The notes under the pieces were generated by a model. It searched no databases and was not told the DNA's origin. It saw only the letters and a program-made list of their open reading frames with translations. From Candidatus Freyarchaeum deiterrae (GTDB lineage: Archaea > Asgardarchaeota > Jordiarchaeia > Jordiarchaeales > Jordiarchaeaceae), in contig CP147778.1 in the NCBI GenBank assembly GCA_037305845.1, positions 3,040,001-3,104,000 on the forward strand: 64,000 bases of DNA. The letters are read 5' to 3'. A program made the translations under genes and the position numbers. Below are positions 9,865 to 39,051 of the stretch, one piece after another; within the stretch, counting starts at the first letter, position 1, and the number at the start of each line of letters is the position of its first letter.

Positions 9865-11023
9865 TTAGATCCACCTTCTCCAGTCTTGGATTGGGCCGAT
9901 AGGGTCTTCCCGTTTTATGTAAAGTTATGAATTCGTCGCCCTCAAAATAACCCATAATGTCAGAGGTTGCCTGAAATCGTTGGTCCGCGAAGCCGGCACC
10001 TATAAAATCGAAAAGTTTCAAATCATACTTTTTTTCGCCTAACACGAACGCTTCAACCTTTTTGGGATCGCTGAATCCGCTTGATAGTGCTATTCCTAAA
10101 TCAGGATATCCTTCATCATTAAATTCTCGTCTTGCAGCGGCTACTGCTTCCACGGTGACTCCTGTTCCCGTCCAGTATTTTCTTCCGTCGAATGGCAGTC
10201 CACCCTCTGCGACGACAGCTCCATTTGTGTCAAATCTCGGCCCCCAGAAATTGTCCCCTAATACCTCAGCAACTCGGAGAGTGTCTGTTATTTCCCTGTT
10301 GAATGTGTCCGCAAGGAAAATTCTAGGAACATCTTTAGGCATGTGTTTGTGGAATGCTTTCATAGTTTCAACAGCCGAATCCTCCTCTCCATACTTCGAA
10401 GCTATAGCTAGAACCAATGCGTGTGGTACTGTACCCACACCCTTCTGTCCAAACGTCGCTGCACCAATATCTGTTGAAGTTGAAGTTGCTCCACCCTCAT
10501 ATGCAGCTCTTGCTATTTTGGCATCCCACTCATATCCAAAATGTCTTGCCCCAAAATAGGATATCGGTCTGGGACCAAATTTACTTTTATTCATTATATT
10601 AACAAGTTCTTTAACATTAGCCTTGATTTTTTTCACATCTGGGTCGGTTTCATTATTCTCCTGGTCTGTTCTGCCCGATAGGATTGAAAGATACATAGTC
10701 TCTAACTCAATTAAATCCTGAACAGGGCCTTCGATAACCATTAGAGTTTCTTCGGGTTGATACTGAACTCCATCATGGAGAGCAAAAATTCTTCCATCAT
10801 GTTCCGCTAGTTTTGGACTGTACTTCATAATTGCAGCTATAGCTTCGTCTATCCCTCCGGTCACGCTGGGGCCTTTCCTAATAAAAACCTGATATCTAAC
10901 GTATGTGTTGATTCCTTCTTTTCTGATTATCTCCCCGCTTCTCAGGAAATACACGTCAGTGTGTGGTTCGTGTCTCGGTGGAAACTCAAAATCAGTTTTT
11001 CTTTCAACCCTCATTACATTCAC
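9854..11023 (-). CDS. pncB: Nicotinate phosphoribosyltransferase
   Basis: TDVYF, ELETMYL, FGARH, GTVPHAL, DTFN, RFDT and SSGF motifs. Confidence 0.88.
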   Translation of the reverse strand: MNVMRVERKTDFEFPPRHEPHTDVYFLRSGEIIRKEGINTYVRYQVFIRKGPSVTGGIDEAIAAIMKYSPKLAEHDGRIFALHDGVQYQPEETLMVIEGPVQDLIELETMYLSILSGRTDQENNETDPDVKKIKANVKELVNIMNKSKFGPRPISYFGARHFGYEWDAKIARAAYEGGATSTSTDIGAATFGQKGVGTVPHALVLAIASKYGEEDSAVETMKAFHKHMPKDVPRIFLADTFNREITDTLRVAEVLGDNFWGPRFDTNGAVVAEGGLPFDGRKYWTGTGVTVEAVAAARREFNDEGYPDLGIALSSGFSDPKKVEAFVLGEKKYDLKLFDFIGAGFADQRFQATSDIMGYFEGDEFITLHKTGRPYRPNPRLEKVDLSVY

Positions 11024-11299: not shown

Positions 11300-11923
11300 T
11301 TATTTTTCCTTGGTTTTTGGTTCTTTTTTGATTCTTTCTTCTTCTTGGGTGTGGAGTGTCATTAGAATTTTGGATTTGCCATTTCCGAGGATTGTTAGTT
11401 CATAGATGTAGTCTGCTGCTTCTTGTGTTTTTGGTCCTGGTGATATTTCTGTGATCTTCAAGTCGGGTGTCTCTGTTATTACGAGTTTTAAAAATATGTC
11501 GTACCCGTTTTTGTTTTCAATAATGATTTGCCTTTTATAGTCAACCGGCGTTGTACGGATTATTAGTTCGCCTACCTCAACTTCGGTTTTTTTGCCTTTA
11601 ATTCTGTCCTCAAACTTGCTTACGCAGAACACGCTCTTATCGATGATGCTTTGGGTTTCAAATTTTTTTGATTCAAAGCTTCCCTCGGTTTCGGTCGAAA
11701 GAAAGGGCAAGCCGCCCTTTAACATGGTTATGGAGCTCTTAGGAATATTGGTTGCTTCGGATATTTCAAAAACAAACTTTAAGGACGAATCTAATTTTAT
11801 TTCCAACTGTAGTGCTTCGTTTAACCAGTGTTTCAAATATATTTCGTGAATTTTTTTAACTTCAGCACTAACTTTCTGAATCGGCACAACAGCGGGTCGT
11901 CTCTGAGTAACAGTCAATTTCAT
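11300..11923 (-). CDS. Protein resembling the C-terminal half of DUF4139 family proteins
   Basis: Beta-rich; YKRQIIIENKNGYDIFLKLVITE and YIYELTILGNGKSKILMT resemble the DUF4139 C-terminal Ig-like part; GGAGG SD. Confidence 0.55.
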   Translation of the reverse strand: MKLTVTQRRPAVVPIQKVSAEVKKIHEIYLKHWLNEALQLEIKLDSSLKFVFEISEATNIPKSSITMLKGGLPFLSTETEGSFESKKFETQSIIDKSVFCVSKFEDRIKGKKTEVEVGELIIRTTPVDYKRQIIIENKNGYDIFLKLVITETPDLKITEISPGPKTQEAADYIYELTILGNGKSKILMTLHTQEEERIKKEPKTKEK

Positions 11924-11949
11924 TTTTGAACCTCCCTTCTTTCATACGT

Positions 11950-12675
11950 CTATCTCATTACCATTTTCAGGTTTTGCATCTCGTTCATCGCTTGACTCCT
12001 ACGCATAGAAGCCTTCCTTGTCTCAGTTTGTTGACCAGAAGGAGGAGTAGGATTAGGAAGACCTTCAGACATATCTATGGGCATTGGAGGGATTTCAAGT
12101 CCTAGATCGAATTCTGCTAGTGCAATATCTGAGTCGTAGGCAAAATTAGTGTTATTAATAATCGTTGCTGAAACATTAATTACTGCGGCTCCTTCGCCTG
12201 TAAGGTCTATTACCATTCTGGGTTCCCAGTAGATTCGGTTATCAAAAAGTATATATTTGATTTTTAGAGAGCAGGTTTTTTCGGTTTTGGAATCCACCCA
12301 TATTTTTACTTCGGCGAATTCATCCTGATACATACTGTAATAAATTGATTCACAAAGTTCCAAGAGCTGTTGCCTTTTATAAGGCAATCTTCTACTCTTA
12401 TCTATAATATCTCTGGAGACTTCCTGACGCGTCCTTATTTCTTCGTAAACAAATTCTGGCACTGGCTTTTTAATGTCTATTTGCTGCACATAAGCATCAT
12501 CGCAGTTTAATTCAACTTGTATCTGATTAATATCGAAAGAAGCTGGAATATCTTCAATTCTAAAGGTATTCATCCCTTTTACTAATTGCACCATTCCTTC
12601 ACGTTCAATCAAGGCACCGCCTTTATCAAAAATAATAACAGACGACACCTTGGGATTAAATGACTCAATAGACAT
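11950..12675 (-). CDS. Protein resembling the DUF4140/DUF4139 N-terminal half
   Basis: VSSVIIFDKGGALIEREG, IEDIPASFD, LKIKY...IYWEPRMVIDL, ATIINNT. Confidence 0.65.
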   Translation of the reverse strand: MSIESFNPKVSSVIIFDKGGALIEREGMVQLVKGMNTFRIEDIPASFDINQIQVELNCDDAYVQQIDIKKPVPEFVYEEIRTRQEVSRDIIDKSRRLPYKRQQLLELCESIYYSMYQDEFAEVKIWVDSKTEKTCSLKIKYILFDNRIYWEPRMVIDLTGEGAAVINVSATIINNTNFAYDSDIALAEFDLGLEIPPMPIDMSEGLPNPTPPSGQQTETRKASMRRSQAMNEMQNLKMVMR

Positions 12676-12928
12676 GTTTAGTATCCACCTCTATTCAAAA
12701 ACTTTCAATTCGCCGTAAGATAAATGGTCTATCTTACATTAAAACTTAGCCTCAGAAAAATGAACAATAGAAAAATATTGAGAAGAGATACTCCCACATA
12801 AATTTGTCAAGATTTATAAAAAACAAATTTATTATGCCTTTTTTAAACCACCCCTATCCTGCGTCTTGGTTGGTTCTACCCCCGCCCTCTTCCTTGTGGT
12901 TTTTCATCTTCCCCTTTCAGAGGATGTT

Positions 12929-13735
12929 TCACGCCCTACCCGGTTCCAGATCATCATCCATATCCTTAAGAAGCGGGGCACGTTTCCCTGCAAGGTTGGG
13001 GTTTATCTTTATAGCCTCATCGTAGCATTTTATCGCCTCATCGCGCTTTCCGAGATTATCCAATGCTGTGCCCTTGTTATACCATGCATCTGCATAGTTG
13101 GGGTCTATCTTTATCGCCTTATCGTAGCATTTTATCGCTTCATCGCGCTTTCCGAGATTATCCAATGCTGTGCCCTTGTTATACCATGCATCTGCATCTT
13201 TGGGGTTTATCTTTATAGCTTCATCGTAGCATTTTATCGCTTCATCGAATTTTCCGAGATCATACAACAATGCTGTGCCCTTGTTATACCATGCATCTGC
13301 ATCTTTGGGGTTTATCTTTATAGCCTCATCGTAGGATTCTATCGCCTCATTTGGCTTTACGGCACCAATCCTGAATCCAAATAAATCGGCCATCGTCTCT
13401 CCGAGCTTTTCGGCTTCAGGCCTAAACAATTCTGCGACCTTTTCTGCGACCCTTTGGTTCACCTCTTCGCGCTTTTTGGGGCCACCCTGTGGAATGGCCT
13501 TGTTAATCCTTGCATCTGTATGGTTGGGGTTTATCTTTAGAGCCTCATCGTAGCATTTTATCGCTTCATCGCGCTTTCCGAGACCATCCAATGCGTCGCC
13601 CTTGTTATACCATGCATCTGCATCTTTGGGGTTTATCTTTAGAGCCTCATCGTAGCATTTTATCGCCTCATCGTACTTTCCGAGCCTAGCCAACCCAATG
13701 CCCTTTTCAATCAATTCCTTTGCCGTTTTAGACAT
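12929..13735 (-). CDS. TPR-only protein, copy 1 (5 intact TPRs plus 1 interrupted by an insert)
   Basis: Repeats ADAWYNKGxALxxLGKxDEAIKCYDEAIKINP; start at ATG after AGGTGA SD (the ORF-track start at 13789 is an unlikely extension). Confidence 0.92.
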   Translation of the reverse strand: MSKTAKELIEKGIGLARLGKYDEAIKCYDEALKINPKDADAWYNKGDALDGLGKRDEAIKCYDEALKINPNHTDARINKAIPQGGPKKREEVNQRVAEKVAELFRPEAEKLGETMADLFGFRIGAVKPNEAIESYDEAIKINPKDADAWYNKGTALLYDLGKFDEAIKCYDEAIKINPKDADAWYNKGTALDNLGKRDEAIKCYDKAIKIDPNYADAWYNKGTALDNLGKRDEAIKCYDEAIKINPNLAGKRAPLLKDMDDDLEPGRA

Positions 13736-28766: not shown

Positions 28767-29018
28767 GTGATTACTCTGCCTTATTTCTGTAGGGTTTGTG
28801 GCAAACGCATTAAAGGAATCGGCAGCGAAGCCAAACACATATCCGAATGGGCGATGGCCTTCACTAAGGGGAAGACCCACTGGAGATACAAAAAGCATTA
28901 TGATTTTCTGGTGAGAAACCACAGTTCATTTGATTACGAGGAAGTAAAAAAATTAATCGAAGAAATGGATTCCAAAACCCTGACAGATAAGAACCAAGCA
29001 CGAACTCCAAAGAAATGA
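28767..29018 (+). CDS. Small putative Zn-finger protein
   Basis: CRVC...H...H; AAGGAG SD. Confidence 0.55.
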   Translation: MITLPYFCRVCGKRIKGIGSEAKHISEWAMAFTKGKTHWRYKKHYDFLVRNHSSFDYEEVKKLIEEMDSKTLTDKNQARTPKK

Positions 29019-29041
29019 ATGAAAATAGGAACTGAAGTTAA

Positions 29042-29983
29042 TTGAAGAGAATAATTATAGACACGGATGTCGGCTTGGATGTTGATGACGCGTACGCTAT
29101 TTCTCTAGCCGCAAAATCTCCTGAGCTTACCGTAGAGGGCATAACTACTGTTTATGGCGACACACTACTCAGAGCCAGAATCGCCCTGAAACTGCTCAAA
29201 TTAGCTGGTAGAAGCGATATCCCCGTCATAGTGGGTGAGGGGGAACCAATAACGGAGAACAAGCAATCACGGATGCTGGGCTTCGAGGGAGAAGGCATAC
29301 TAAAGCCCAAAGACAAAGAACTACAAATTCCATCTATAAACGCGGTTGACTTTATTACATCTAAGGCTCTAACCTCCAAGAAAGACCTGACCATAGTCAC
29401 AATCGGGGCACTCACAAACATCGCCCTAGCCCTAAAAAAACAACCAGACATTAAAAGAGGAATAAAAGAACTAGTAATAATGGGCGGAATAATCTACCCC
29501 CCAGAAATAAACGGAGAAAAAATACCGTATGACTCGGAGTACAATTTCAACTGCGATCCCGAGGCCGCAAAAATAGTATTTGAATGCGAAATCCCGAAAA
29601 CCCTAGTCCCAATGGACATAACCATGAAACCCGATAACTACCTAACCGAAATAGAGCTCACAAAACTACAGGAAGCCAACACACCCCTAACAGCAACTCT
29701 TCTCGAAATGACCAAAATCTGGCTAGAATACAGAAAAGAATCAGCATCCACCATTGGAATATCACCAGAAATAGTAAAACCATGGATGCACGACCCACTC
29801 GCAGTAACAGTAGCCCTGAAAAAAGAAATCTTCAAAACCGAAAATTACAATCTCCGAATGGATATACTGGAAGGAAAGGCGAGAATAATCCCTGACGCGG
29901 AAGTAGCTGAGATGAAAGTCTGCACAAACGCTGACTTCAACCAATTTAAGAAGCTTCTGATTGAACGACTAACAAAAAAATAA
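29042..29983 (+). CDS. Nucleoside hydrolase (IU-NH family)
   Basis: IIDTDVGLDVDD, GALTNIA, EYNFNCDPEAA, MHDP. Confidence 0.93.
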   Translation: MKRIIIDTDVGLDVDDAYAISLAAKSPELTVEGITTVYGDTLLRARIALKLLKLAGRSDIPVIVGEGEPITENKQSRMLGFEGEGILKPKDKELQIPSINAVDFITSKALTSKKDLTIVTIGALTNIALALKKQPDIKRGIKELVIMGGIIYPPEINGEKIPYDSEYNFNCDPEAAKIVFECEIPKTLVPMDITMKPDNYLTEIELTKLQEANTPLTATLLEMTKIWLEYRKESASTIGISPEIVKPWMHDPLAVTVALKKEIFKTENYNLRMDILEGKARIIPDAEVAEMKVCTNADFNQFKKLLIERLTKK

Positions 29984-30061
29984 ATATACTTTACAGCCAT
30001 AAAGCCATTTTATTATGTAAGTTAAAATTAAAAAATTAGAATAGGCTAATTGCTTAGCCAT

Positions 30062-31030
30062 TTAGTTTTTTGTCATGTTGAGGTGGAAATATTTGGGATC
30101 TATTCCATATATTTTCGATGATGTTTGGAGTTTTTTAATAGTACCTCGGATGGTTTCCCCGTTTTCATGGCCTTTAATCTTCTTAGCAGCATCTAGGGCG
30201 TCCTCAAAATACTTGATCGCATTCATATAGTTTTTCAGCTTAGCATATGTTTCCCCAATTTTTCTAAGAACATCCTCTTCCTGTGTCCGGTTCCCTAATT
30301 CTTGATAGATGTCTAGTGCTTTCTCATAACACATTAGTGCGTCTTCATTATCTTCGAACTCGCTGTACATGTTTCCAATGCCTTGGAGGGCTGCCGCTTC
30401 ACCTTTACGGTTTCCTATCTCTTTCATGACTCTTAACGCTTCAAGGAAAGTTATTAGGGCAGCTGAGTATTTTTCAAGTTTCACATATGCTTTCGCAGCC
30501 CGTAAGAGCATATCCCCCTCAGCTTCAAATTTTCCTAAAGCATGGTTGATTCTCGCTGTTTCTCGGAAGCATCTGAGAGCAGAGGAGTATTTCCCGAATG
30601 TCTCGTATACGGTTCCAATACCGAGGAAAGCTATTTTCTCGTCCTCAAAATCCCCAATATCATGAGCTAGACTTGAAACCCTTTTAAGGCATTTTAGGAC
30701 TGAAGGATAATTGCGCAGTATAAGGTGTATATGACTTATACCCATGAGTGTTTCTATTTCTTCACTAATGTTTCCGGTTTCACTTACTATTTCCAGCTTC
30801 TCTTCGAAGTCCTTCAACGCAGCTTGATAGTCCCCAATCTCATAATGCATCTGACCCATTTCAGTTAACACGTTCCGAACCAAATCGATATTGTTCACCT
30901 GCTTTAAAAGGGGCACAGCTTCGTTTAACAGACAAACTGCTTTACTAATCTCTGAATTACCGTAAGCTTTGAGCCCCTCCTCAACCAATTTTTGGGCCCT
31001 AAGCTCCAGTGAATTGCCTTCTCCTACCAT
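30062..31030 (-). CDS. TPR protein (~40-aa repeats)
   Basis: Repeats such as EAAALQGIGNMY...ALMCYEKALDIYQELGN. Confidence 0.85.
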   Translation of the reverse strand: MVGEGNSLELRAQKLVEEGLKAYGNSEISKAVCLLNEAVPLLKQVNNIDLVRNVLTEMGQMHYEIGDYQAALKDFEEKLEIVSETGNISEEIETLMGISHIHLILRNYPSVLKCLKRVSSLAHDIGDFEDEKIAFLGIGTVYETFGKYSSALRCFRETARINHALGKFEAEGDMLLRAAKAYVKLEKYSAALITFLEALRVMKEIGNRKGEAAALQGIGNMYSEFEDNEDALMCYEKALDIYQELGNRTQEEDVLRKIGETYAKLKNYMNAIKYFEDALDAAKKIKGHENGETIRGTIKKLQTSSKIYGIDPKYFHLNMTKN

Positions 31031-31052
31031 AATTTATCTCCTCATTTCCCAT

Positions 31053-31072
31053 AAGTGGGAATTTTCCCACTT
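31053..31072. promoter_or_regulatory. Palindromic operator at the predicted transcription start of the 30062-31030 gene
   Basis: AAGTGGGAA-TT-TTCCCACTT, perfect 9-bp arms, about 20 nt downstream of a minus-strand TTTATAAA box. Confidence 0.55.
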
Positions 31073-31117
31073 TTACACATTTACCCACAAATTTATAAAT
31101 TTTTGCATACTTCTTAC

Positions 31118-31449
31118 GCCTTGTTGCATAATTATTTCTTCTTTCTTTTGGCTGGCTTACCGCCTCTGCCCTGCTGGGGTTCTCCGAGAATGGTTTAGCA
31201 GAGCCTGTTGTAAACCGCGACCTTTAAGCCTACTTCCAGGCTGGGCGGCGGGAAGGATTCGAGCCGCCACTGGCTCTCACCCGCTTTGAGAAGCAGGATC
31301 AGCTCCCCGCCTTAACCAGCCGGTCACCAACAATTAACATTAAACTCCACTCAAGGGAAAGAAATATTATAGGAGGAAGGAGGAAAACAAGATTTACGAC
31401 CCTTTCGAGGCGGAAGCAAAGGTAAACAGAGCAAATCATGCAACAAGGC
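31118..31449. mobile_element. MITE-like element with 16-bp inverted repeats (IS5/IS903-like) carrying a structured RNA
   Basis: GCCTTGTTGCATAATT (31118-31133) and AATCATGCAACAAGGC (31434-31449) are 15/16 complementary; no flanking target duplication is visible. Confidence 0.65.
31150..31322 (-). ncRNA. Unrecognised ~175-nt multi-stem structured RNA
   Basis: GC-rich island with closing stem GGCTGG/CCAGCC, CCTGCT/AGCAGG, and hairpins TCTCA/TGAGA, GGCGGC/GCCGCC, AGCCT/AGGCT, GGTTTA/TAAACC. TATAATAT about 40 nt upstream on the minus strand. Strand is inferred. Confidence 0.55.
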
Positions 31450-31662
31450 AAAGTAAGAGAAAAATTTATATACCTGATAGAAGATAAAAATGGACGCTTC
31501 ACAGTTATCTTGGAAATCGGAAACACGGGGTTTCGGGAGAATAAGTGAGGGGAACCAGACCGCCACGAGCAGCAGCACGCAGAGAGAATCAACCTCTCGT
31601 CAGTATCCGCGGGAGCGCCGAATAACGGCGCAGTGAAAAAGTAAAGTACTTCAAAAAAACTG

Positions 31663-34600
31663 GTGAGTTTGGAGAAATTGAGCCTAAAAAACCGCTTCCA
31701 TAAACAAAAACGAGCATGGCTCTCATTGATGGCGATCTCAATTTTCATGGTGTCACTATACACACCAGTATACCTGTACTCCCAATCCGTTAACAGTTAC
31801 CTTCAATCCCTCCCCCTAAACGGCTACCTGACTCCTAAAAGCAATACGTCGGAAGGGCAGGTGAAAATCGGAACATTATTAATCCTGCTGGACAATCCCG
31901 GAAAGATAGTGACCTGGAACCAGTCAGCAACCATCTCAGCAATATTAATCAACAACCAGACTCTAGAACCAATCCCTCACGAAAACCTAGAACTTTATGT
32001 CAATCTTCAAAATGAGAGCTGGACGTTGCTAAGCACCGGATCCACAAACGAATCTGGAATAGCGCAACTCACATTTTTTGTAGACATGAAAAACGGTGAT
32101 TGCCAATATAAAATAAGCTACACAGGTAGCTCAAATTACTTACCTATAAAAAAGCAATCATACTTTACAGTAATCGGAGACCCCGACCCCAGTTATACAC
32201 TTAATGTTGTGGAGGTCACAGACAAACGTATAAAGTTTGATTATACTTTTACGAGTAACATACCTACCGACAACTTCTTTGGCATTCCTCTTTATCATGG
32301 AGGTCTTAACTATGTTGAAGTTCAAGTCTTTGCAGATAGTTCCAATGACGTCGGTTGGTTTAAGTATAGATATACCGAAGATCTAAATGATCTTTCATCT
32401 TATTCAAACTCTTGTGAGCTTACTTATTTACAAGCTGTCGGTGTTCCAGGTTACAGCTATGAACAGCTGGTGAACGTTGGGGAGATTCTAGATAAGAATT
32501 ACACCAAAGTTTCAATCATGGTTTTTGCGTCACAGGAATGGTATAATATTATTAATCTGAGAGTTGGTTGGTCATCTGGCGGCACCACCAAGTATGAAAC
32601 GCTTAAAGATGATGATATTTATGCGCCATCAGGTTCGGTTAAACCTGATTCACCTATAACTTTTCAATTTCCATATGATTATAATTTTACCTTTAATAAT
32701 ATTCAGGATGACTCGGGTTGGACCGCCTATATTCAATATTACTTTACTAACCAGTCATATAATAGCACTATTTATGGGCCATATCCGGTATGGAGTACCG
32801 ATTCACCCGATGCCATAACTTTTACTTATCATATTAACAGGACTACCTGGAGCTTATATCTAAATACGACAATTGAATACAATTATAAATTGATTGATCA
32901 TGACTTTGATTGGGGAAGAGAAAATGATAGAGCTTTCAAAGAGTCTGGTTGGTTGCCCGGTGGGAGAATTTGTACTGAAATTGGTGCTCAAATAGATAGA
33001 ATTGATACTTATGCTTGGTATGGAGGTGATTGGCATCCAATTACGATTTCGCCGCCTGATTACAGTGATTTGTATGTCAATGATAATAATTATATTTACA
33101 TAACTATCGCTAATCCCACAGATAACGATATTAAAATTAACAATGCAGTATTAGGATTTTCATGTAACAAGTTTAAAACTGGAATTAATATTAATACAAG
33201 TATTGCTTCTCCAGATGACACGGGAACTTGGATACCAATTAAAGCATATTTAACTAAAACGATAATGGTAACAAAAAACTTTGATAGTAGTTACTTTAGT
33301 AGTTTAGAAGATTTAGATAATGAAGAAATAAAGATGGAATTTTCATTTACCTACATTAATTCCTCCTCAGAGCCCTCAGAGCCTGGAGCAATTCCCTCAT
33401 CCAATATTCAAGTTGTAGAGATTACAAATAAACATATAGAGTTTACTTATAATTTTGAAAGTAACATACCTCCTGACATCATATTCGGTGTACCTCTTAA
33501 TCTTTATTGGGGTGGTCTTACAAATGTTCAGGTTTCTATCAAGGCATCTGGTCCTTCAGATGGTCTTCACGACGGGTGGTTTGAGTATATCTATCAACAA
33601 AATCTAGACAAATTTCCTTCTTGGGGAGGCACAGTTGATATTGATTCTTTACAAGCTATTAACGTTTCAGGTTACAACGATAATCAGCAGGTTCAACTTG
33701 GAGAGATCATAGATAAGGGTTATACCAACGTTAGTATCACGCTGTATGCGTTACAGGAATGGTATTTTACATGGTTTAAAGCAGGTGAGTCAAGTAGCAA
33801 CCGTAGCTACTACTTTAATGTTGTAGACAATAATAATGCCTCGCTTTACGAAATTTTAGTGGGGGGCACCTCTTCAACATCTTCCTCAAATATTACTTAT
33901 TGTTCAAAATCTTATAATATCACCAGGCCGCCCCCACCAACGGTCAGTTTTATTGGATATGAAGGACACGGCCTAGGTGAATTCACATATAAATATAATG
34001 GAAAGAGTTCAGAAATATTCGCGGTGTTTCAAGTTAATGACACGGCTCGTATTCCCATACAAATCTCTCAAAATTTGGCAATTACTGAAGAAAAATCGGG
34101 AGAATTGATCTCTTTTGCATCTGATACACCGAATATTGGTATTGAAACAAATAAAGAAAGTACTTTATATCCGAACAATGTAACTAAAATCTATTTCAAA
34201 ATAACCCCTTCAACAAAATTTTTCTGGGATGAGAATCTTCTATTGAAAGCCATAGGGAAATGGGTTAATGCTCCCCAACTTCCTAAGGCGATTAGCGACA
34301 TAATGACCTTTATACGTTATTCTTTTGATTTGGCGAATTTTGCAGTGGAATACATGAAGGCACCACCTATAGTTATCGATACGGCTCTGGGTATTATATC
34401 AGTCATTTGGGACGGAGTGGTTCTTTTTGTTGCACCATTAACTCTTGATCCTCAAAGGGAATGTACTTTTACTTCGGATATGACTTGGAAATATATTCAA
34501 AGTCCGGATGGGTCCCTTACCGATTATACTACTTTTAGCTATACTCCACTTGAAATAAATACAACAAAATTGCAATTAAGTGCCTCCTCTGACCAACAAA

Positions 34601-36864
34601 ATAATTTTAACAGTGGTTTAGCAGCAAAAGCACTTTCAATTCCGTTAGAGATTCTTTCGTTAGCTGCACCATTCCCGGCTGATGTGGGCTTTGCAGTAGG
34701 AGCTTTTCTAGCAAACTCCCTTTGCGGATCGTTATGGGATCAGGCGAATGATGATTTGCCTTCAGACCAAAATTATACTGCAATATACCAGCCTCAATAT
34801 CCTTCGTTTAATCTTACCGTTTACGAGCCGAAAAACGAATTTGAGGCATTGCTTTTGCAATACATAAATGCCAGTGCACAATACTTAGGCGATTACCAAG
34901 CCTTCAATATAACGAGCTCGAGAAGGGGGGCCGCTATGGCTGCGGGAGATTATGAGGCGGTTATAAACCAAGATTCCGCCCTAGTTAATTACACTAATAA
35001 CGTGATAGCGGATTCCGTAGCTTTAAAAAATGATATGGAACTCCTGAACTACCATATCTCGGAAAACGTTTCATACTACGTAAACGAATCCTACGCTCTT
35101 GAATCTAACATCTCACAGAACGGCTTATCCGAGCAAAGCATACTCGTATTAGAATCTTTCGGCTACAATCAAACAGAGATAAGCCAGTTGAACCAAACAA
35201 TCATCAGCCTGGCGGGAGAACACATAATTTCGCAGAACATCACAAGTACACTCTCCCTCTTAGACGAGTCCCTGAAAAATTCAACCGAACTACTAAATAC
35301 CCAAATAAAAAGCTATGAGGATTTCGTGACAGAACTAAACAACGAGACCATAAATACCAAAACGCAGTTCTTAAACGAGTCCATAACCACGGCGAGCAAC
35401 GAAACAATCCAGGAACTCGAACAACTCAAAAACGATACAATTACACTTTATAATAACGGGGAATGGAACGCAGTCATAGAGAAAGCCAACCAACTAATCG
35501 AACTAGCTCAGAACACCGCCCTGGAAACAAACAACAACACATACCTCGAATACATAAGTTCCGCACAGGACTATAAGAAAAACGCGGAACAATACCTGAA
35601 AATATACCTCTACCACCTAGAAGAGTTAGAGGTCACCGAAACCGACACCAAAAACGTAACAGTCATAGCACAAAGCGGCGGCGCCCCCACGGCGGACTAC
35701 TTCCTAGAAACGAACGTTTCCTGGGTCACCTCCACACAGCAAACCATCTCCATAACACAGTACCAAAGAACAACGGTAGAACTCACTATTTCTACTCAAG
35801 ACCAGTCACCCGGAACCTACCCTGTAAACCTCAAACTATACCTACCCCAAACCCACACCATCATTGACTCCATACTAACGGTAAAAGTCGTCGACAAAAG
35901 CCCCCCTACAACCACAATCAGTTTAAATGGCACCCCGGGGCTTAATGGCTGGTACACCTCAAACGTGACCGTCACCCTAACGGCCACGGATCCCACCTCA
36001 CCCACTGACGTGAACAAAACGGAATATAGCCTCGACGGAACCAACTGGTTCACCTACTCTGTGCCGTTCACCATAACAACCGAAGGAGTGGTAACCGTAT
36101 ACTTTAACTCAACCGACCAAGCAGGCAACGTGGAAACAACCAAGTCTCAAACAATATGGATCGACCAGACGCCTCCCGCAACCCAGTTAATTATCGGAAT
36201 CCACTACACCGACGGGAAGGGCAACATCTATGTTACCTCCAGCACATGGTTCACTCTAACAGCCACCGACTCTGCTCCTGGCTCAGGAGTCGCAAACACC
36301 TACTACCGCATAAACGGCGGCAACTGGACTGAGTATGTTGGAGCCTTCAACATTACTGGTCCCATAGGAACCTATACCATAGACTACTACAGCGTTGACG
36401 GCGCAGGGAACCAAGAAACGCCGAAAACAGCCACAGTCATCATGGAACAGGCTTACCATGGCTGGGGCAGCCTAGTAATCGGCAAGCAATGGTTCAGAGG
36501 GAACGCCACCCTGTTCCTCTCAGAGCACATGATCCGAATACAGGTAGACAACCAAACAGCCACCTGGAACATCACAAAACAATGCAGAATGGATCACACC
36601 GAATTCTACTACGGCAAGGGCGAACTCGGAAAAATCCTCCTAATGATTCACAGTGGAAAAACATCAACACACGCACTCGCTATAGGCGGCAGAGCTTTCT
36701 TCTGCAGCTGCCCAAAACACTGTGAGCATCATCCCGGCCGAGGCGAATGCGGCAAGCTTCTTACCGTTCCTCACCCCCACCTTGAGGCAGAGCATTCTCC
36801 TCAGCGGAGAACTCCTAACCTTTTTTTTTGGTGGCATGGGTCACCTGAATCATTATACGCCTAA
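31663..36864 (+). CDS. Giant secreted/surface glycoprotein with an internal duplicated domain and C-terminal Ig-like (OmpL47-type) repeats
   Basis: Signal/TM segment; duplicated ~125-aa unit (VVEVTDKRIKFDYTF...QEWY and VVEITNKHIEFTYNF...QEWY); many NxS/T sequons; D..PP.T....TLTATD repeats. The last ~47 codons read through into the antisense of the IS110 relic. Confidence 0.85.
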   Translation: MSLEKLSLKNRFHKQKRAWLSLMAISIFMVSLYTPVYLYSQSVNSYLQSLPLNGYLTPKSNTSEGQVKIGTLLILLDNPGKIVTWNQSATISAILINNQTLEPIPHENLELYVNLQNESWTLLSTGSTNESGIAQLTFFVDMKNGDCQYKISYTGSSNYLPIKKQSYFTVIGDPDPSYTLNVVEVTDKRIKFDYTFTSNIPTDNFFGIPLYHGGLNYVEVQVFADSSNDVGWFKYRYTEDLNDLSSYSNSCELTYLQAVGVPGYSYEQLVNVGEILDKNYTKVSIMVFASQEWYNIINLRVGWSSGGTTKYETLKDDDIYAPSGSVKPDSPITFQFPYDYNFTFNNIQDDSGWTAYIQYYFTNQSYNSTIYGPYPVWSTDSPDAITFTYHINRTTWSLYLNTTIEYNYKLIDHDFDWGRENDRAFKESGWLPGGRICTEIGAQIDRIDTYAWYGGDWHPITISPPDYSDLYVNDNNYIYITIANPTDNDIKINNAVLGFSCNKFKTGININTSIASPDDTGTWIPIKAYLTKTIMVTKNFDSSYFSSLEDLDNEEIKMEFSFTYINSSSEPSEPGAIPSSNIQVVEITNKHIEFTYNFESNIPPDIIFGVPLNLYWGGLTNVQVSIKASGPSDGLHDGWFEYIYQQNLDKFPSWGGTVDIDSLQAINVSGYNDNQQVQLGEIIDKGYTNVSITLYALQEWYFTWFKAGESSSNRSYYFNVVDNNNASLYEILVGGTSSTSSSNITYCSKSYNITRPPPPTVSFIGYEGHGLGEFTYKYNGKSSEIFAVFQVNDTARIPIQISQNLAITEEKSGELISFASDTPNIGIETNKESTLYPNNVTKIYFKITPSTKFFWDENLLLKAIGKWVNAPQLPKAISDIMTFIRYSFDLANFAVEYMKAPPIVIDTALGIISVIWDGVVLFVAPLTLDPQRECTFTSDMTWKYIQSPDGSLTDYTTFSYTPLEINTTKLQLSASSDQQNNFNSGLAAKALSIPLEILSLAAPFPADVGFAVGAFLANSLCGSLWDQANDDLPSDQNYTAIYQPQYPSFNLTVYEPKNEFEALLLQYINASAQYLGDYQAFNITSSRRGAAMAAGDYEAVINQDSALVNYTNNVIADSVALKNDMELLNYHISENVSYYVNESYALESNISQNGLSEQSILVLESFGYNQTEISQLNQTIISLAGEHIISQNITSTLSLLDESLKNSTELLNTQIKSYEDFVTELNNETINTKTQFLNESITTASNETIQELEQLKNDTITLYNNGEWNAVIEKANQLIELAQNTALETNNNTYLEYISSAQDYKKNAEQYLKIYLYHLEELEVTETDTKNVTVIAQSGGAPTADYFLETNVSWVTSTQQTISITQYQRTTVELTISTQDQSPGTYPVNLKLYLPQTHTIIDSILTVKVVDKSPPTTTISLNGTPGLNGWYTSNVTVTLTATDPTSPTDVNKTEYSLDGTNWFTYSVPFTITTEGVVTVYFNSTDQAGNVETTKSQTIWIDQTPPATQLIIGIHYTDGKGNIYVTSSTWFTLTATDSAPGSGVANTYYRINGGNWTEYVGAFNITGPIGTYTIDYYSVDGAGNQETPKTATVIMEQAYHGWGSLVIGKQWFRGNATLFLSEHMIRIQVDNQTATWNITKQCRMDHTEFYYGKGELGKILLMIHSGKTSTHALAIGGRAFFCSCPKHCEHHPGRGECGKLLTVPHPHLEAEHSPQRRTPNLFFWWHGSPESLYA

Positions 36865-37025
36865 AGCCACTGGGAGCCCCCCATGTTCATACTCCTAGTG
36901 AGGCTCTTTCCTGCCGATTGGTATACTGAGGGAGCCAAAATCTCTTACTCAGGAAGCCAGATTCTCGTTGTTCTCAGCTGGAATTGCGGAAGCCGACATC
37001 TCACCCACGACCAGAATCGTAATTA
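36718..37025 (-). pseudogene. IS110-family transposase relic (C-terminal Transposase_20 region)
   Basis: With frameshifts: ITILVVG...LAS*.../LAPSVYQSAGKSLTRSMNMGGSQWL/RRIMIQVTHAT/VRSSPLRR...GKKLAAFASAGMMLT, matching the IS110 GL.P..xQSG, G...LR and A..A.ARK motifs. Confidence 0.78.
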
Positions 37026-37039
37026 ACCGCTTCATATCA

Positions 37040-37129
37040 TCCTTGTTGGGGAGGAAGGAAAATAAGTTTTAAGCCCTTTTTGATGCGAATGTAAAGTTAA
37101 ACAGAGCCAATTAAATTATGAAACAAGAC
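37040..37129. repeat. Degenerate second copy of the MITE right end (direct repeat of 31371-31449)
   Basis: GGAGGAAGGA...AAG.TTTA.G.CC.TTT.GA.GCG...AAAG.TAAACAGAGC...AATTATGAAACAAGAC, preceded by a partial left IR CCTTGTTG at 37041-37048. Confidence 0.7.
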
Positions 37130-37432
37130 ACATACTTGAAACACTCCACTAAAAAAATTTCAATTACAGAAAAAAGAGGAATTATTCCTTATTTTTTAAA
37201 AAGAAAATTAATGATCCTTTTTTTCTAGATATCGAATAAAAACAAATCTCTTCCCCTAAAACTACCAAAAACAAGCTGAAGCATCACAAAACTTGTAAAA
37301 AAAATTATTGCTAATTATTTTTAAATGGCTAGTGAAAATCTGAATAATTGGCGGCTTATTTGCCGAAAATATATAAATAATCCTAGGAATGTGTTTCTTA
37401 TTAATAAATGGAAAAAAGGGGATGTAAATTAC

Positions 37433-37978
37433 ATGGTTAGGGAAATGACTGAAACTAATCTTCGCAGTGCATATGCTGGTGAAAGCCAGGCCCATATGAG
37501 GTACATGATTTTTGCAGATAGAGCAAAGCAGAAGTTTCCGAATGTGGCACGTTTGTTCACTGCCATAGCTTTCGCTGAACAAGTTCATGCAACTAATCAT
37601 TTTAGAAATATAGCGAGTAAAGGAGGCTTTACCGTAGTCTCAGCTGCGCCCTTCGGGGCTAAGAATACCTCTGAAGACCTTCAGGCAGGCATTGATGGGG
37701 AGACCTTCGAAATTAACGAGATGTACCCCGCCTATCTGGAAGAAGCTAAATTTCAGGGAGAAAAGGGCGCTGAAACCAGTTTTAGATATGCATGGGAAGC
37801 CGAGAAAATCCACAAAACTATGTACGAAAAAGCAAAAAAAACAGTGGACACGGGTAAAGATATCAAATTAGGGCCAGTGCAGATATGCAGCGTGTGCGGT
37901 CATACTCTTGAAGGTGATGCTCCAGACAAGTGCCCCATATGCGGGTCTCCTAAAAGTTCATTCAAAGCTTTCCCGTAA
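37433..37978 (+). CDS. Rubrerythrin
   Basis: AYAGESQA..RY, EQVHA, EINEMYP, EKIH, CSVCG...CPICG; start set at MVREM. Confidence 0.95.
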   Translation: MVREMTETNLRSAYAGESQAHMRYMIFADRAKQKFPNVARLFTAIAFAEQVHATNHFRNIASKGGFTVVSAAPFGAKNTSEDLQAGIDGETFEINEMYPAYLEEAKFQGEKGAETSFRYAWEAEKIHKTMYEKAKKTVDTGKDIKLGPVQICSVCGHTLEGDAPDKCPICGSPKSSFKAFP

Positions 37979-38351
37979 ATTAACCTACATAAGCTTCGCT
38001 TCTTAGACAAAACATAAAAAAAGTTTTTCAAAGCAAATAGAAAGATACGACTGAAAAACGAAGTTAAATAAACAATTAGCTAAATCCAAAAATTATCTTC
38101 TCTTTTTCTTTTAGAATGATAAATCTCAAAAAATAGAAGTGACCATTAAGGAATAATTTTTATTTCTCCTGTTAGAGGGTTCTGATAACTTATTGTTGGA
38201 AAGTATCATTATTTGAAAAACAATTTTAAAGTTTAAAGCAAATTTGCAATTTTTTCTTTAATTATTATAGGGGGATTTTCCTTAAAGTAGGATGGAATCG
38301 CATGATCGATAAGTCGAATTTATAATCCCTCGCCCTATTATAAGATACAAT

Positions 38352-38921
38352 ATGAAAAAAATAGTTGTCTTTAATTATGTTTCCGTTGATGGATTCTTCG
38401 CTGGGCCAAACGGTGAGATAGATTGGTTCAAGGTAATCAAAAAAGATGATGAGTGGGATGCCTATACCCATAGGCAGGCGCAACCAGGCGGTACGTTGAT
38501 TTTCGGCCATACAACCTACGAAATGATGAAAAGTTATTGGCCCACGCCGGACGCGATCAAGAGCGACCCCGGTATGGCCAAAGCCGTGAATGAAAGCCCA
38601 AAGATCGTTTTTTCAAAGACGCTCAAGAGCGTAGAAGAGGGGCTTCATTGGAAAAATATTAGACTTTTTCATGAGATAAAGCCTGAAGACATACGCAAAC
38701 TGAAAGAGAAGCAAGACATGACGATATTAGGGAGCGGTACCCTCGTGCAGCAGTTTGCAAATCTTGGTCTCATCGACGAATACTGGCTGGTGGTAGTCCC
38801 CATCGTTTTGGGCGCTGGCAAGCCCCTATTCAAAGATGTGAAAACGATGAACCTGAAGCTCCTTGAGGCGAAGAGGTTTAAGAATGGAATTGTCTTGCTT
38901 CGCTATCAACCGGAAAAATAA
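38352..38921 (+). CDS. Dihydrofolate reductase-like (RibD C-terminal) protein
   Basis: SVDGFFAG, TYE, GSGTLV, LIDEY, PIVLGAGKPLF. Confidence 0.9.
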   Translation: MKKIVVFNYVSVDGFFAGPNGEIDWFKVIKKDDEWDAYTHRQAQPGGTLIFGHTTYEMMKSYWPTPDAIKSDPGMAKAVNESPKIVFSKTLKSVEEGLHWKNIRLFHEIKPEDIRKLKEKQDMTILGSGTLVQQFANLGLIDEYWLVVVPIVLGAGKPLFKDVKTMNLKLLEAKRFKNGIVLLRYQPEK

Positions 38922-39051
38922 TCTGCACAATATTTAGAAGAAAAAACTTGTAAGAATGAAATCTGCTTTTTCAAGATTCTTCAAGAGTAGAGATACTCTT
39001 GCAAAGTAAAACCGAGTTTAACTTGGCTCTGAAAAATAGAGGAGCCTCTAT

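Follow-up and report, generated by a model that had tools for sequence, protein, structure and literature searches.

Does a bracket of transposon ends around a very large gene in an Asgard archaeon move as a unit, or is it what remains after unrelated elements have come and decayed? The locus lies in a stretch of 64,000 nucleotides from Candidatus Freyarchaeum deiterrae, an Asgard archaeon of the class Jordarchaeia (Freyarchaeia) (contig CP147778.1, positions 3,040,001 to 3,104,000; hereafter the window), in which ends of an insertion sequence (IS) of the IS5 family and a relic of an IS110-family transposase gene bracket, over about 6 kb, a gene for a giant secreted or surface protein. Asgard archaea are close relatives of eukaryotes, and to our knowledge little is known of their mobile DNA. 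An earlier reading made from the letters of this stretch only (the sequence-only reading) had proposed that the ends of a MITE (miniature inverted-repeat transposable element) mobilised the large gene as cargo. We compared the genome (G000, a single contig of 3,576,204 bp) with five congeneric metagenome-assembled genomes (MAGs; G001-G005) and with full-length IS copies recovered by a metagenome scan. Our reading, to which we give a probability of about 0.7, is that fragments of dead mobile elements form a patchwork around a gene specific to the lineage, and that the stretch is no working mobile unit. What the sequence-only reading observed is confirmed, its interpretation is partly supported, and the fragments are the ordinary remains of transposons from two known families, in a host that is unusual for them.

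The fragments could be named with the help of an intact autonomous copy, the 1,053-bp metagenome contig L091, which runs from terminus to terminus and codes on its minus strand for a 287-aa DDE transposase. This protein matches NF033579 (IS5 family) at 223 bits (cut-off 140), PF01609 at 4.5e-25 and PF13737 at 7e-16, and shares about 33% identity, along 98% of its length, with elements of enterobacterial plasmids that are annotated as IS5-like, ISEc35 family. A second copy, L089, lies in the middle of its contig and measures 1,064 bp. The termini read TGCC...GGCA, and the same ends stand at contig breaks in G005, where unrelated flanks start exactly at the terminus and pair as target duplications; three independent live copies carry perfect 8-bp duplications (GATTGGTT, GCAATCAC and ATACCTCA). 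In the MAGs we found ends and relics of the IS and no full-length copy, the interior being unassembled in G005. With near-identical copies in a MAG and one intact metagenome copy, the element looks active in Jordarchaeia.

The 334-bp element upstream of the giant gene matches L091 at IS positions 2-151 (80% identity, E 5e-33) and 882-1055 (84%, E 6e-51), and since it maps to both ends it is, as aligned, an IS5-family IS lacking its central 730 bp. Its terminal inverted repeats (IRs), at 31118-31133 and 31434-31449, agree in 15 of 16 positions as had been noticed earlier, and the arms reach 33 nt at 76%. The window 16-mer is identical to the terminus of L091, so that the assignment of the repeats to IS5-family ends holds as well; seven 16-mers of the genome fall within two mismatches of it, where our own estimate for uniform composition is about two. 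No second complete copy of this element was found in the genome, nor any other copy with its deletion junction. Look-alikes of 357-358 bp on a metagenome contig have their junction at IS positions 206/901 and the window element at 151/882. From the different junction and the missing second copy we conclude that the 334-bp element is probably a one-off deletion derivative and not a member of a propagated MITE family. The two look-alikes (contig Ga0315314_1001534, 8014-8370 and 9282-9639) stand 1.3 kb apart, neither with a target duplication.

A structured RNA had been seen by the sequence-only reading in the GC-rich core of the element (31150-31322), and it might be thought a non-coding RNA with a function, such as a guide or bridge RNA for the IS110 element. 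The core is indeed GC-rich and several stems can be drawn in it, IS110 elements use a 5' non-coding RNA, and NCBIfam calls its model NF033542 'IS110 family RNA-guided transposase'. Yet the core aligns base for base with the coding ends of the IS5 transposase gene in L091, both on the minus strand, and it folds no better than its dinucleotide shuffles (z -0.43 and -1.09). Rfam gave no match in 29000-39000, nor in the IS and IS110 loci. The IS110 relic is 5.4 kb away, and a comparison by eye showed no likeness between the core and the 200-nt 5' region that is conserved among IS110 copies of the genus. We regard a functional RNA at this place as highly improbable; by its alignment the core is the leftover of both ends of the transposase gene, unrelated to IS110, and the 'RNA' annotation is cleared up as such.

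In this genome the IS and its protein match only fragments (blastn and tblastn), about 13 pieces in all of 60-84% identity, and no intact transposase of either the IS5 or the IS110 family is present. They include a 137-bp mini-element at 2,683,301-2,683,437 and a relic at 1,285,302-1,285,695 that retains the first third of the transposase gene. Four left-end fragments (2853574-2853670, 3170232-3170311, 3172704-3172782 and 3174964-3175049) sit 84-99 nt upstream of paralogous genes of 236-237 aa, three of them in a tandem array of such paralogs; these fragments, at 2.85 and 3.17 Mb, were evidently duplicated along with the gene.

When the copies in this genome are tabulated with their neighbours, as had been suggested earlier for the 80-bp end, the terminus faces a gene start reading away from it in 12 of 13. 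This bias, together with the position of both inner copies of the 16-bp motif beside TATA boxes, is what could be said for a transcription-factor site lying 15-18 nt upstream of outward-facing TATA boxes and co-regulating the divergent genes on either side, the giant gene and a tetratricopeptide repeat (TPR) gene. But the motif coincides exactly with a transposable element's terminus; target duplications flank it, and unrelated DNA follows directly. The promoters at the locus, of the archaeal TATA type, are native and conserved where no IS end is present: the TPR upstream region is conserved in G001, G002, G003 and G005, three of these four without an IS end there, the TPR promoters of G001, G002 and G005 have the same TATA box without the motif, and most promoters of the giant-gene family also lack it. 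The regulatory reading, which the sequence-only reading had named as a rival to its own, is refuted by these facts and we give it next to no weight. The bias towards gene starts could arise if insertions survive best in DNA upstream of promoters, if fragments are copied with gene families, or both.

At the other side of the giant gene, the diverged second copy of the right end is real, as is the IS110 relic that abuts it. The right-end fragment (37048-37130) matches the profile of the family with an nhmmer E-value of 2.4e-15, is 76% identical to L091 positions 981-1043 (blastn) and 74-77% identical to the nearby right end over 62-81 nt. The relic is 73% identical over 253 nt (blastn, E 9e-37) to L078, an intact 405-aa IS110 gene of a congeneric MAG (G001:C9) whose product matches NF033542 at 291 bits and has DEDD and Transposase_20 domains; tblastn gives 72% over 25 aa, and recognisable peptides include LAPSVYQSAGKSLT. 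It keeps the Transposase_20 region (homologous to aa 239-352), the DEDD half is missing, and it is the sole IS110 trace in this genome. No IS110 match came from Pfam hidden Markov model searches, whether on the whole genome or on six short frames, because the pieces are short and frameshifted; the DNA search of the relatives found the relic.

Relic and IS5 fragment meet interior to interior, at about IS110 codon 239 and IS position 975, and the contact is therefore a deletion scar, not a targeted insertion. The partial left IR reported at the start of the second copy stands in so far as its 8 nt (CCTTGTTG) are present at 37041-37048; that they are an IR is unproven, as the first 3 nt already belong to the IS110 homology. 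Compared with two paralogs of the giant gene, A and B, the locus has the relic in place of about four final codons, the stop codon and the T-rich terminator, as well as the first part of the right-end fragment, which explains the aberrant tail (..CPKHCEHHPGRGECGKLL..) and the T9 run inside the reading frame. The last approximately 46 codons of the giant gene run antisense through the relic; on this homology the relic is genuine and has overwritten the gene's stop codon, and what looks odd at the giant protein's C-terminus is an IS110 scar. The stretch 36865-37049 was also tested as a remnant of the major facilitator superfamily (MFS) transporter gene carried by relatives, and this was ruled out.

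IS621-type IS110 elements are RNA-guided, and IS4321 and IS5075 target transposon ends; the sequence-only reading had considered that IS110 inserted repeatedly into this MITE family. That suggestion fails, given a single IS110 trace, an interior-to-interior junction, and five IS110 loci in the relatives of which none adjoins IS5 ends. At least three of these five interrupt a palindrome resembling the repetitive extragenic palindromic (REP) type. The IS110 copies of G001, G004 and G005 are inserted in the middle of such a REP-like unit, and their conserved 200-nt 5' non-coding region is a candidate guide RNA, of which nothing is present at the window relic. A REP-like unit (ACATAAGCTT..CTTAGACAAA..ATGAAAAA/TTTTTCAT) also occurs in the window at 37983-38049, just 3' of the rubrerythrin gene, and the same repeat is found at about 450-690 and 1900-1960 of L078 and at a further locus, L080.

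If the 6-kb bracket had moved as a unit in the manner of the live IS copies, its outer termini should be flanked by an 8-bp duplication. No duplication in that geometry exists, either for the 334-bp element (left flank ACTTCTTA, inner right flank AAGTAAGA, agreeing in 3 of 8 positions) or for the whole unit (ACTTCTTA and outer right flank CATACTTG). The CATACTT heptamers noticed outside both outer repeats are present, the left one being 4 nt out of register, and in 1.9% of cases a 7-mer is common to two AT-rich 15-nt windows drawn at random from this genome. The outer ends are about 75% alike, the genome holds no source of transposase, and the site has been rearranged independently. We find that these points speak against mobilisation of the 6-kb unit.

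In four relatives the unit is absent from the same site: the TPR and rubrerythrin genes, which flank it in the window, lie 0.2-2.3 kb apart with no giant gene between them. No exact empty site can be read in these four, as the orientation of the TPR gene differs and the non-coding DNA no longer aligns, and a metagenome scan for exact matches to the flank on the TPR side gave no hit. Together with its promoter, the TPR gene (29984-31116) is inverted relative to G001, G002, G003 and G005 (tblastx and protein searches). Between TPR and rubrerythrin, G001, G003 and G005 carry an MFS transporter gene of which this genome holds no close homolog at any place. The site is a hot spot of rearrangement and has been rearranged independently.

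Several observations weigh against the patchwork. Paralog A (G000 159,517-171,908) has the same bracket in the same orientation: upstream a short element runs from left end to right end, and downstream a right end stands alone. Four of the approximately 13 fragments in 3.6 Mb thus stand beside two paralogs, which is not random placement. Direct repeats of 6-7 nt lie near the outer termini of both brackets, for which the chance is 1.9% (7-mer) and 6.4% (6-mer), and homology with the relatives ends within about 10 nt of the left terminus. A rival reading is a former composite transposon or mobile insertion cassette, in which a direct-orientation pair of IS5 elements around a giant gene moved at least once via the outermost termini with transposase supplied in trans, both units having since decayed. 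Such a cassette would account for the common arrangement and orientation of the two brackets, for the correctly inverted outer termini (31117 and 37130), for the lack of the unit at the syntenic site of four relatives, and for a CATACTT that starts exactly where the right-hand duplication should, the flanks of paralog A sharing AGAAGA. It would also fit the lone right end of the window being nearer to the paralog A copy (81.5%) than to the right end close by (74%).

Neither unit, however, has an 8-bp duplication in the geometry of the three live copies. The window gene and paralog A differ by 22 nt at the inner junction of right terminus and promoter, which suggests separate insertions, and the upstream elements differ in their deletion, being 129 bp long at paralog A and 334 bp in the window. 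The two cargo genes are unrelated except for the leader, signal peptide and C-terminal module. The 3' end of paralog A is closest to that of paralog B, which has no IS fragments, and gene conversion is evident there. At the site itself the TPR gene is inverted and the MFS transporter gene is missing, both being independent rearrangements. In G000, G002 and G004, ten further family loci with a leader or C-terminal module show neither the bracket nor an IS5 fragment within about 1.5 kb on either side. We therefore hold a former cassette to be unlikely, though it deserves to be kept in mind. Still more doubtful is the wider proposal that the giant genes of the genus are cassettes with a common promoter and a structured 145-nt leader controlling expression, some of which spread as passengers between IS5-family ends; if true, it would amount to a mobile surface-protein cassette system in an Asgard archaeon.

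Under the patchwork reading we infer the following order of events, in which the fragments would have arrived separately. The gene belongs to a family of giant secreted proteins with a common promoter, a 145-nt leader and a signal-anchor, a C-terminal module being common to three paralogs. An IS5-family IS would have inserted just upstream of its promoter and later lost its central 730 bp, leaving the 334-bp element, while of a second IS5-family copy downstream of the gene only the last approximately 82 bp survive. An IS110-family element may then have inserted between the end of the gene and the right-end fragment. Deletions would have cut it to an internal piece of 322 bp and may also have taken the last codons, stop codon and terminator of the gene, so that the frame now runs antisense through the relic.

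In the giant protein a hydrophobic signal-anchor comes after a basic N-terminus. The protein also has 50 N-X-S/T sites and weak immunoglobulin-like matches, and shares with its paralogs a C-terminal module of about 280 aa; a search of the five congeneric genomes with this query gave no match to its first approximately 1,400 residues. The C-terminal modules of paralogs A (G000 159745-160575) and B (1002830-1003665) are 85% identical, with 100-nt windows of 95-98%, which points to recent gene conversion between these distant loci. At its 3' end (36720-36864) the open reading frame lacks the stop codon of the family and crosses the T9 run at 36822-36830, which resembles a transcription terminator, and the mRNA may end before the present stop codon.

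Between the TATA box and the start codon lies the leader of 145 nt, with five predicted helices. A covariance model finds it 12 times, four times in this genome (the other loci being 171573-171720, 505185-505332 and 1005401-1005545), seven times in G002 and once, weakly, in G004, and each of the 12 copies stands 8-46 nt upstream of a long open reading frame with a signal-anchor. In the alignment fitted to the model, pairing holds for 86% of cells (78% in shuffles), and 12 pairs are changed at both partners. The covariation score is 0.319 against 0.21, none of 500 shuffles reaching 0.319, and slid controls give at most 0.164; all these figures are inflated by the fit to the model. The leader is probably structured. 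It has no Rfam match, and it was rejected as coding sequence, since conservation does not extend to the start codon at 31491 and paralog A's open frame through the leader is spurious. Standing before 12 genes for giant secreted proteins, the leader is a candidate regulatory RNA for the cell-surface repertoire of an Asgard archaeon, and is a better lead than the bracket and worth pursuing.

Some further observations concern the surroundings. The palindrome GTGGGAAAATTCCCAC in the 5' untranslated region of the TPR gene (31053-31072) is kept in all five genomes that have this gene and is a possible operator. IS-mediated recombination as the cause of the TPR inversion was considered and dropped, since no IS fragment was recognisable at the other junction (29984-30061, read by eye). 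In G003 (contig C177, at about 10380-10514) a 135-bp IS5-family mini-element flanked by TGCACAT repeats stands 12 nt upstream from the TATA region of TPR. Its insertion point is only a few bases away from that of the window copy, and its orientation is the opposite one, which suggests an insertion hot spot. At 11672-13076 the same contig carries a gene for an IS607-type serine recombinase and a TnpB-like fragment; these sit where G000, G001 and G005 have a nucleoside hydrolase gene, which is also missing from G002. The features of the locus are collected in Table 1.

Table 1. Features of the bracket and its neighbours, in window coordinates.
Feature	Position	Strand	Evidence or remark
TPR-repeat gene, left neighbour	30062-31030	-	Pfam TPR_12 9e-31
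Native TPR promoter and 5' untranslated region	31031-31116	-	TATA box ~31092-31099; palindrome GTGGGAAAATTCCCAC
CATACTT heptamer	31106-31112	+	4 nt off the expected target-duplication position
Internally deleted IS5-family element, 334 bp, MITE-like, left end to right end	31117-31450	+	blastn vs L091
Left terminal inverted repeat GCCTTGTTGCATAATT	31118-31133	+	Same as terminus of autonomous copies L091 and L089
Transposase C-terminus relic (..LEVGLKVAVYNRLC), last ~24 codons, stop at 31195-31197	31198-31269	-	Matches ..LEVGLKVAVYNQLC* of the 287-aa transposase
Transposase N-terminus relic (..RRGELILLLKAG), first ~20 codons, start codon lost	31276-31335	-	Matches MVGDRLVKRGELILLLKAG.. of L091
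Right terminal inverted repeat	31434-31450	+	
Giant-gene family promoter (AAGAGAAAAATTTATATA, TATA box 31475-31482)	31451-31498	+	Kept in paralogs and G002 genes without IS end
Conserved 5' leader, 145 nt, probably structured	31499-31644	+	Covariance model R1, 141 bits
Giant secreted or surface protein, 1,728-1,733 aa	31678-36864	+	
IS110-family transposase gene, internal fragment (~aa 239-352 of 405), frameshifted, without element ends	36722-37043	-	blastn, tblastn vs L078
Lone right end of IS5-family element (~IS positions 975-1055), last ~82 bp, terminus pointing away from gene	37048-37130	+	nhmmer, blastn
Second CATACTT heptamer	37131-37137	+	Directly after right terminus
Rubrerythrin gene, right neighbour	37433-37978	+	Pfam 3e-27; adjacent to TPR in relatives

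The comparison with known systems follows the same lines. From composite transposons (Tn9, Tn903) and the mobile insertion cassette MIC231 of Bacillus cereus the bracket differs in having no flanking duplication, no evidence of movement, ends only about 75% alike and no transposase in the genome; it is like them in its inverted IS termini around a passenger gene, with no transposase inside. The 334-bp element agrees with MITEs of the internal-deletion type in its small size, both terminal repeats, the lack of a gene for transposase and an intergenic site at a promoter, and differs in having neither a target duplication nor a second complete copy in the genome. The downstream relic is homologous to the Transposase_20 half of IS110 transposases, and its intact relatives from the genus keep the 200-nt 5' region and lie in a short palindromic repeat; the relic itself is an internal piece, with no ends and no 5' RNA region. 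There is a likeness, too, to the IS5 family, with its IS903-like or ISH1-like subgroups. The terminal IRs resemble those of IS903, which makes 9-bp duplications, and the 8-bp duplications of the live copies would fit the archaeal ISH1 subgroup. A further difference lies in the Asgard archaeal host, where the copies in this genome are all dead fragments. In its length of about 1.05 kb, IRs of about 17 bp, and one DDE transposase with PF13737 and PF01609 scoring above the cut-off of NF033579, L091 is like other members of the family, and documents for Jordarchaeia an IS5-family element with defined termini and target duplication.

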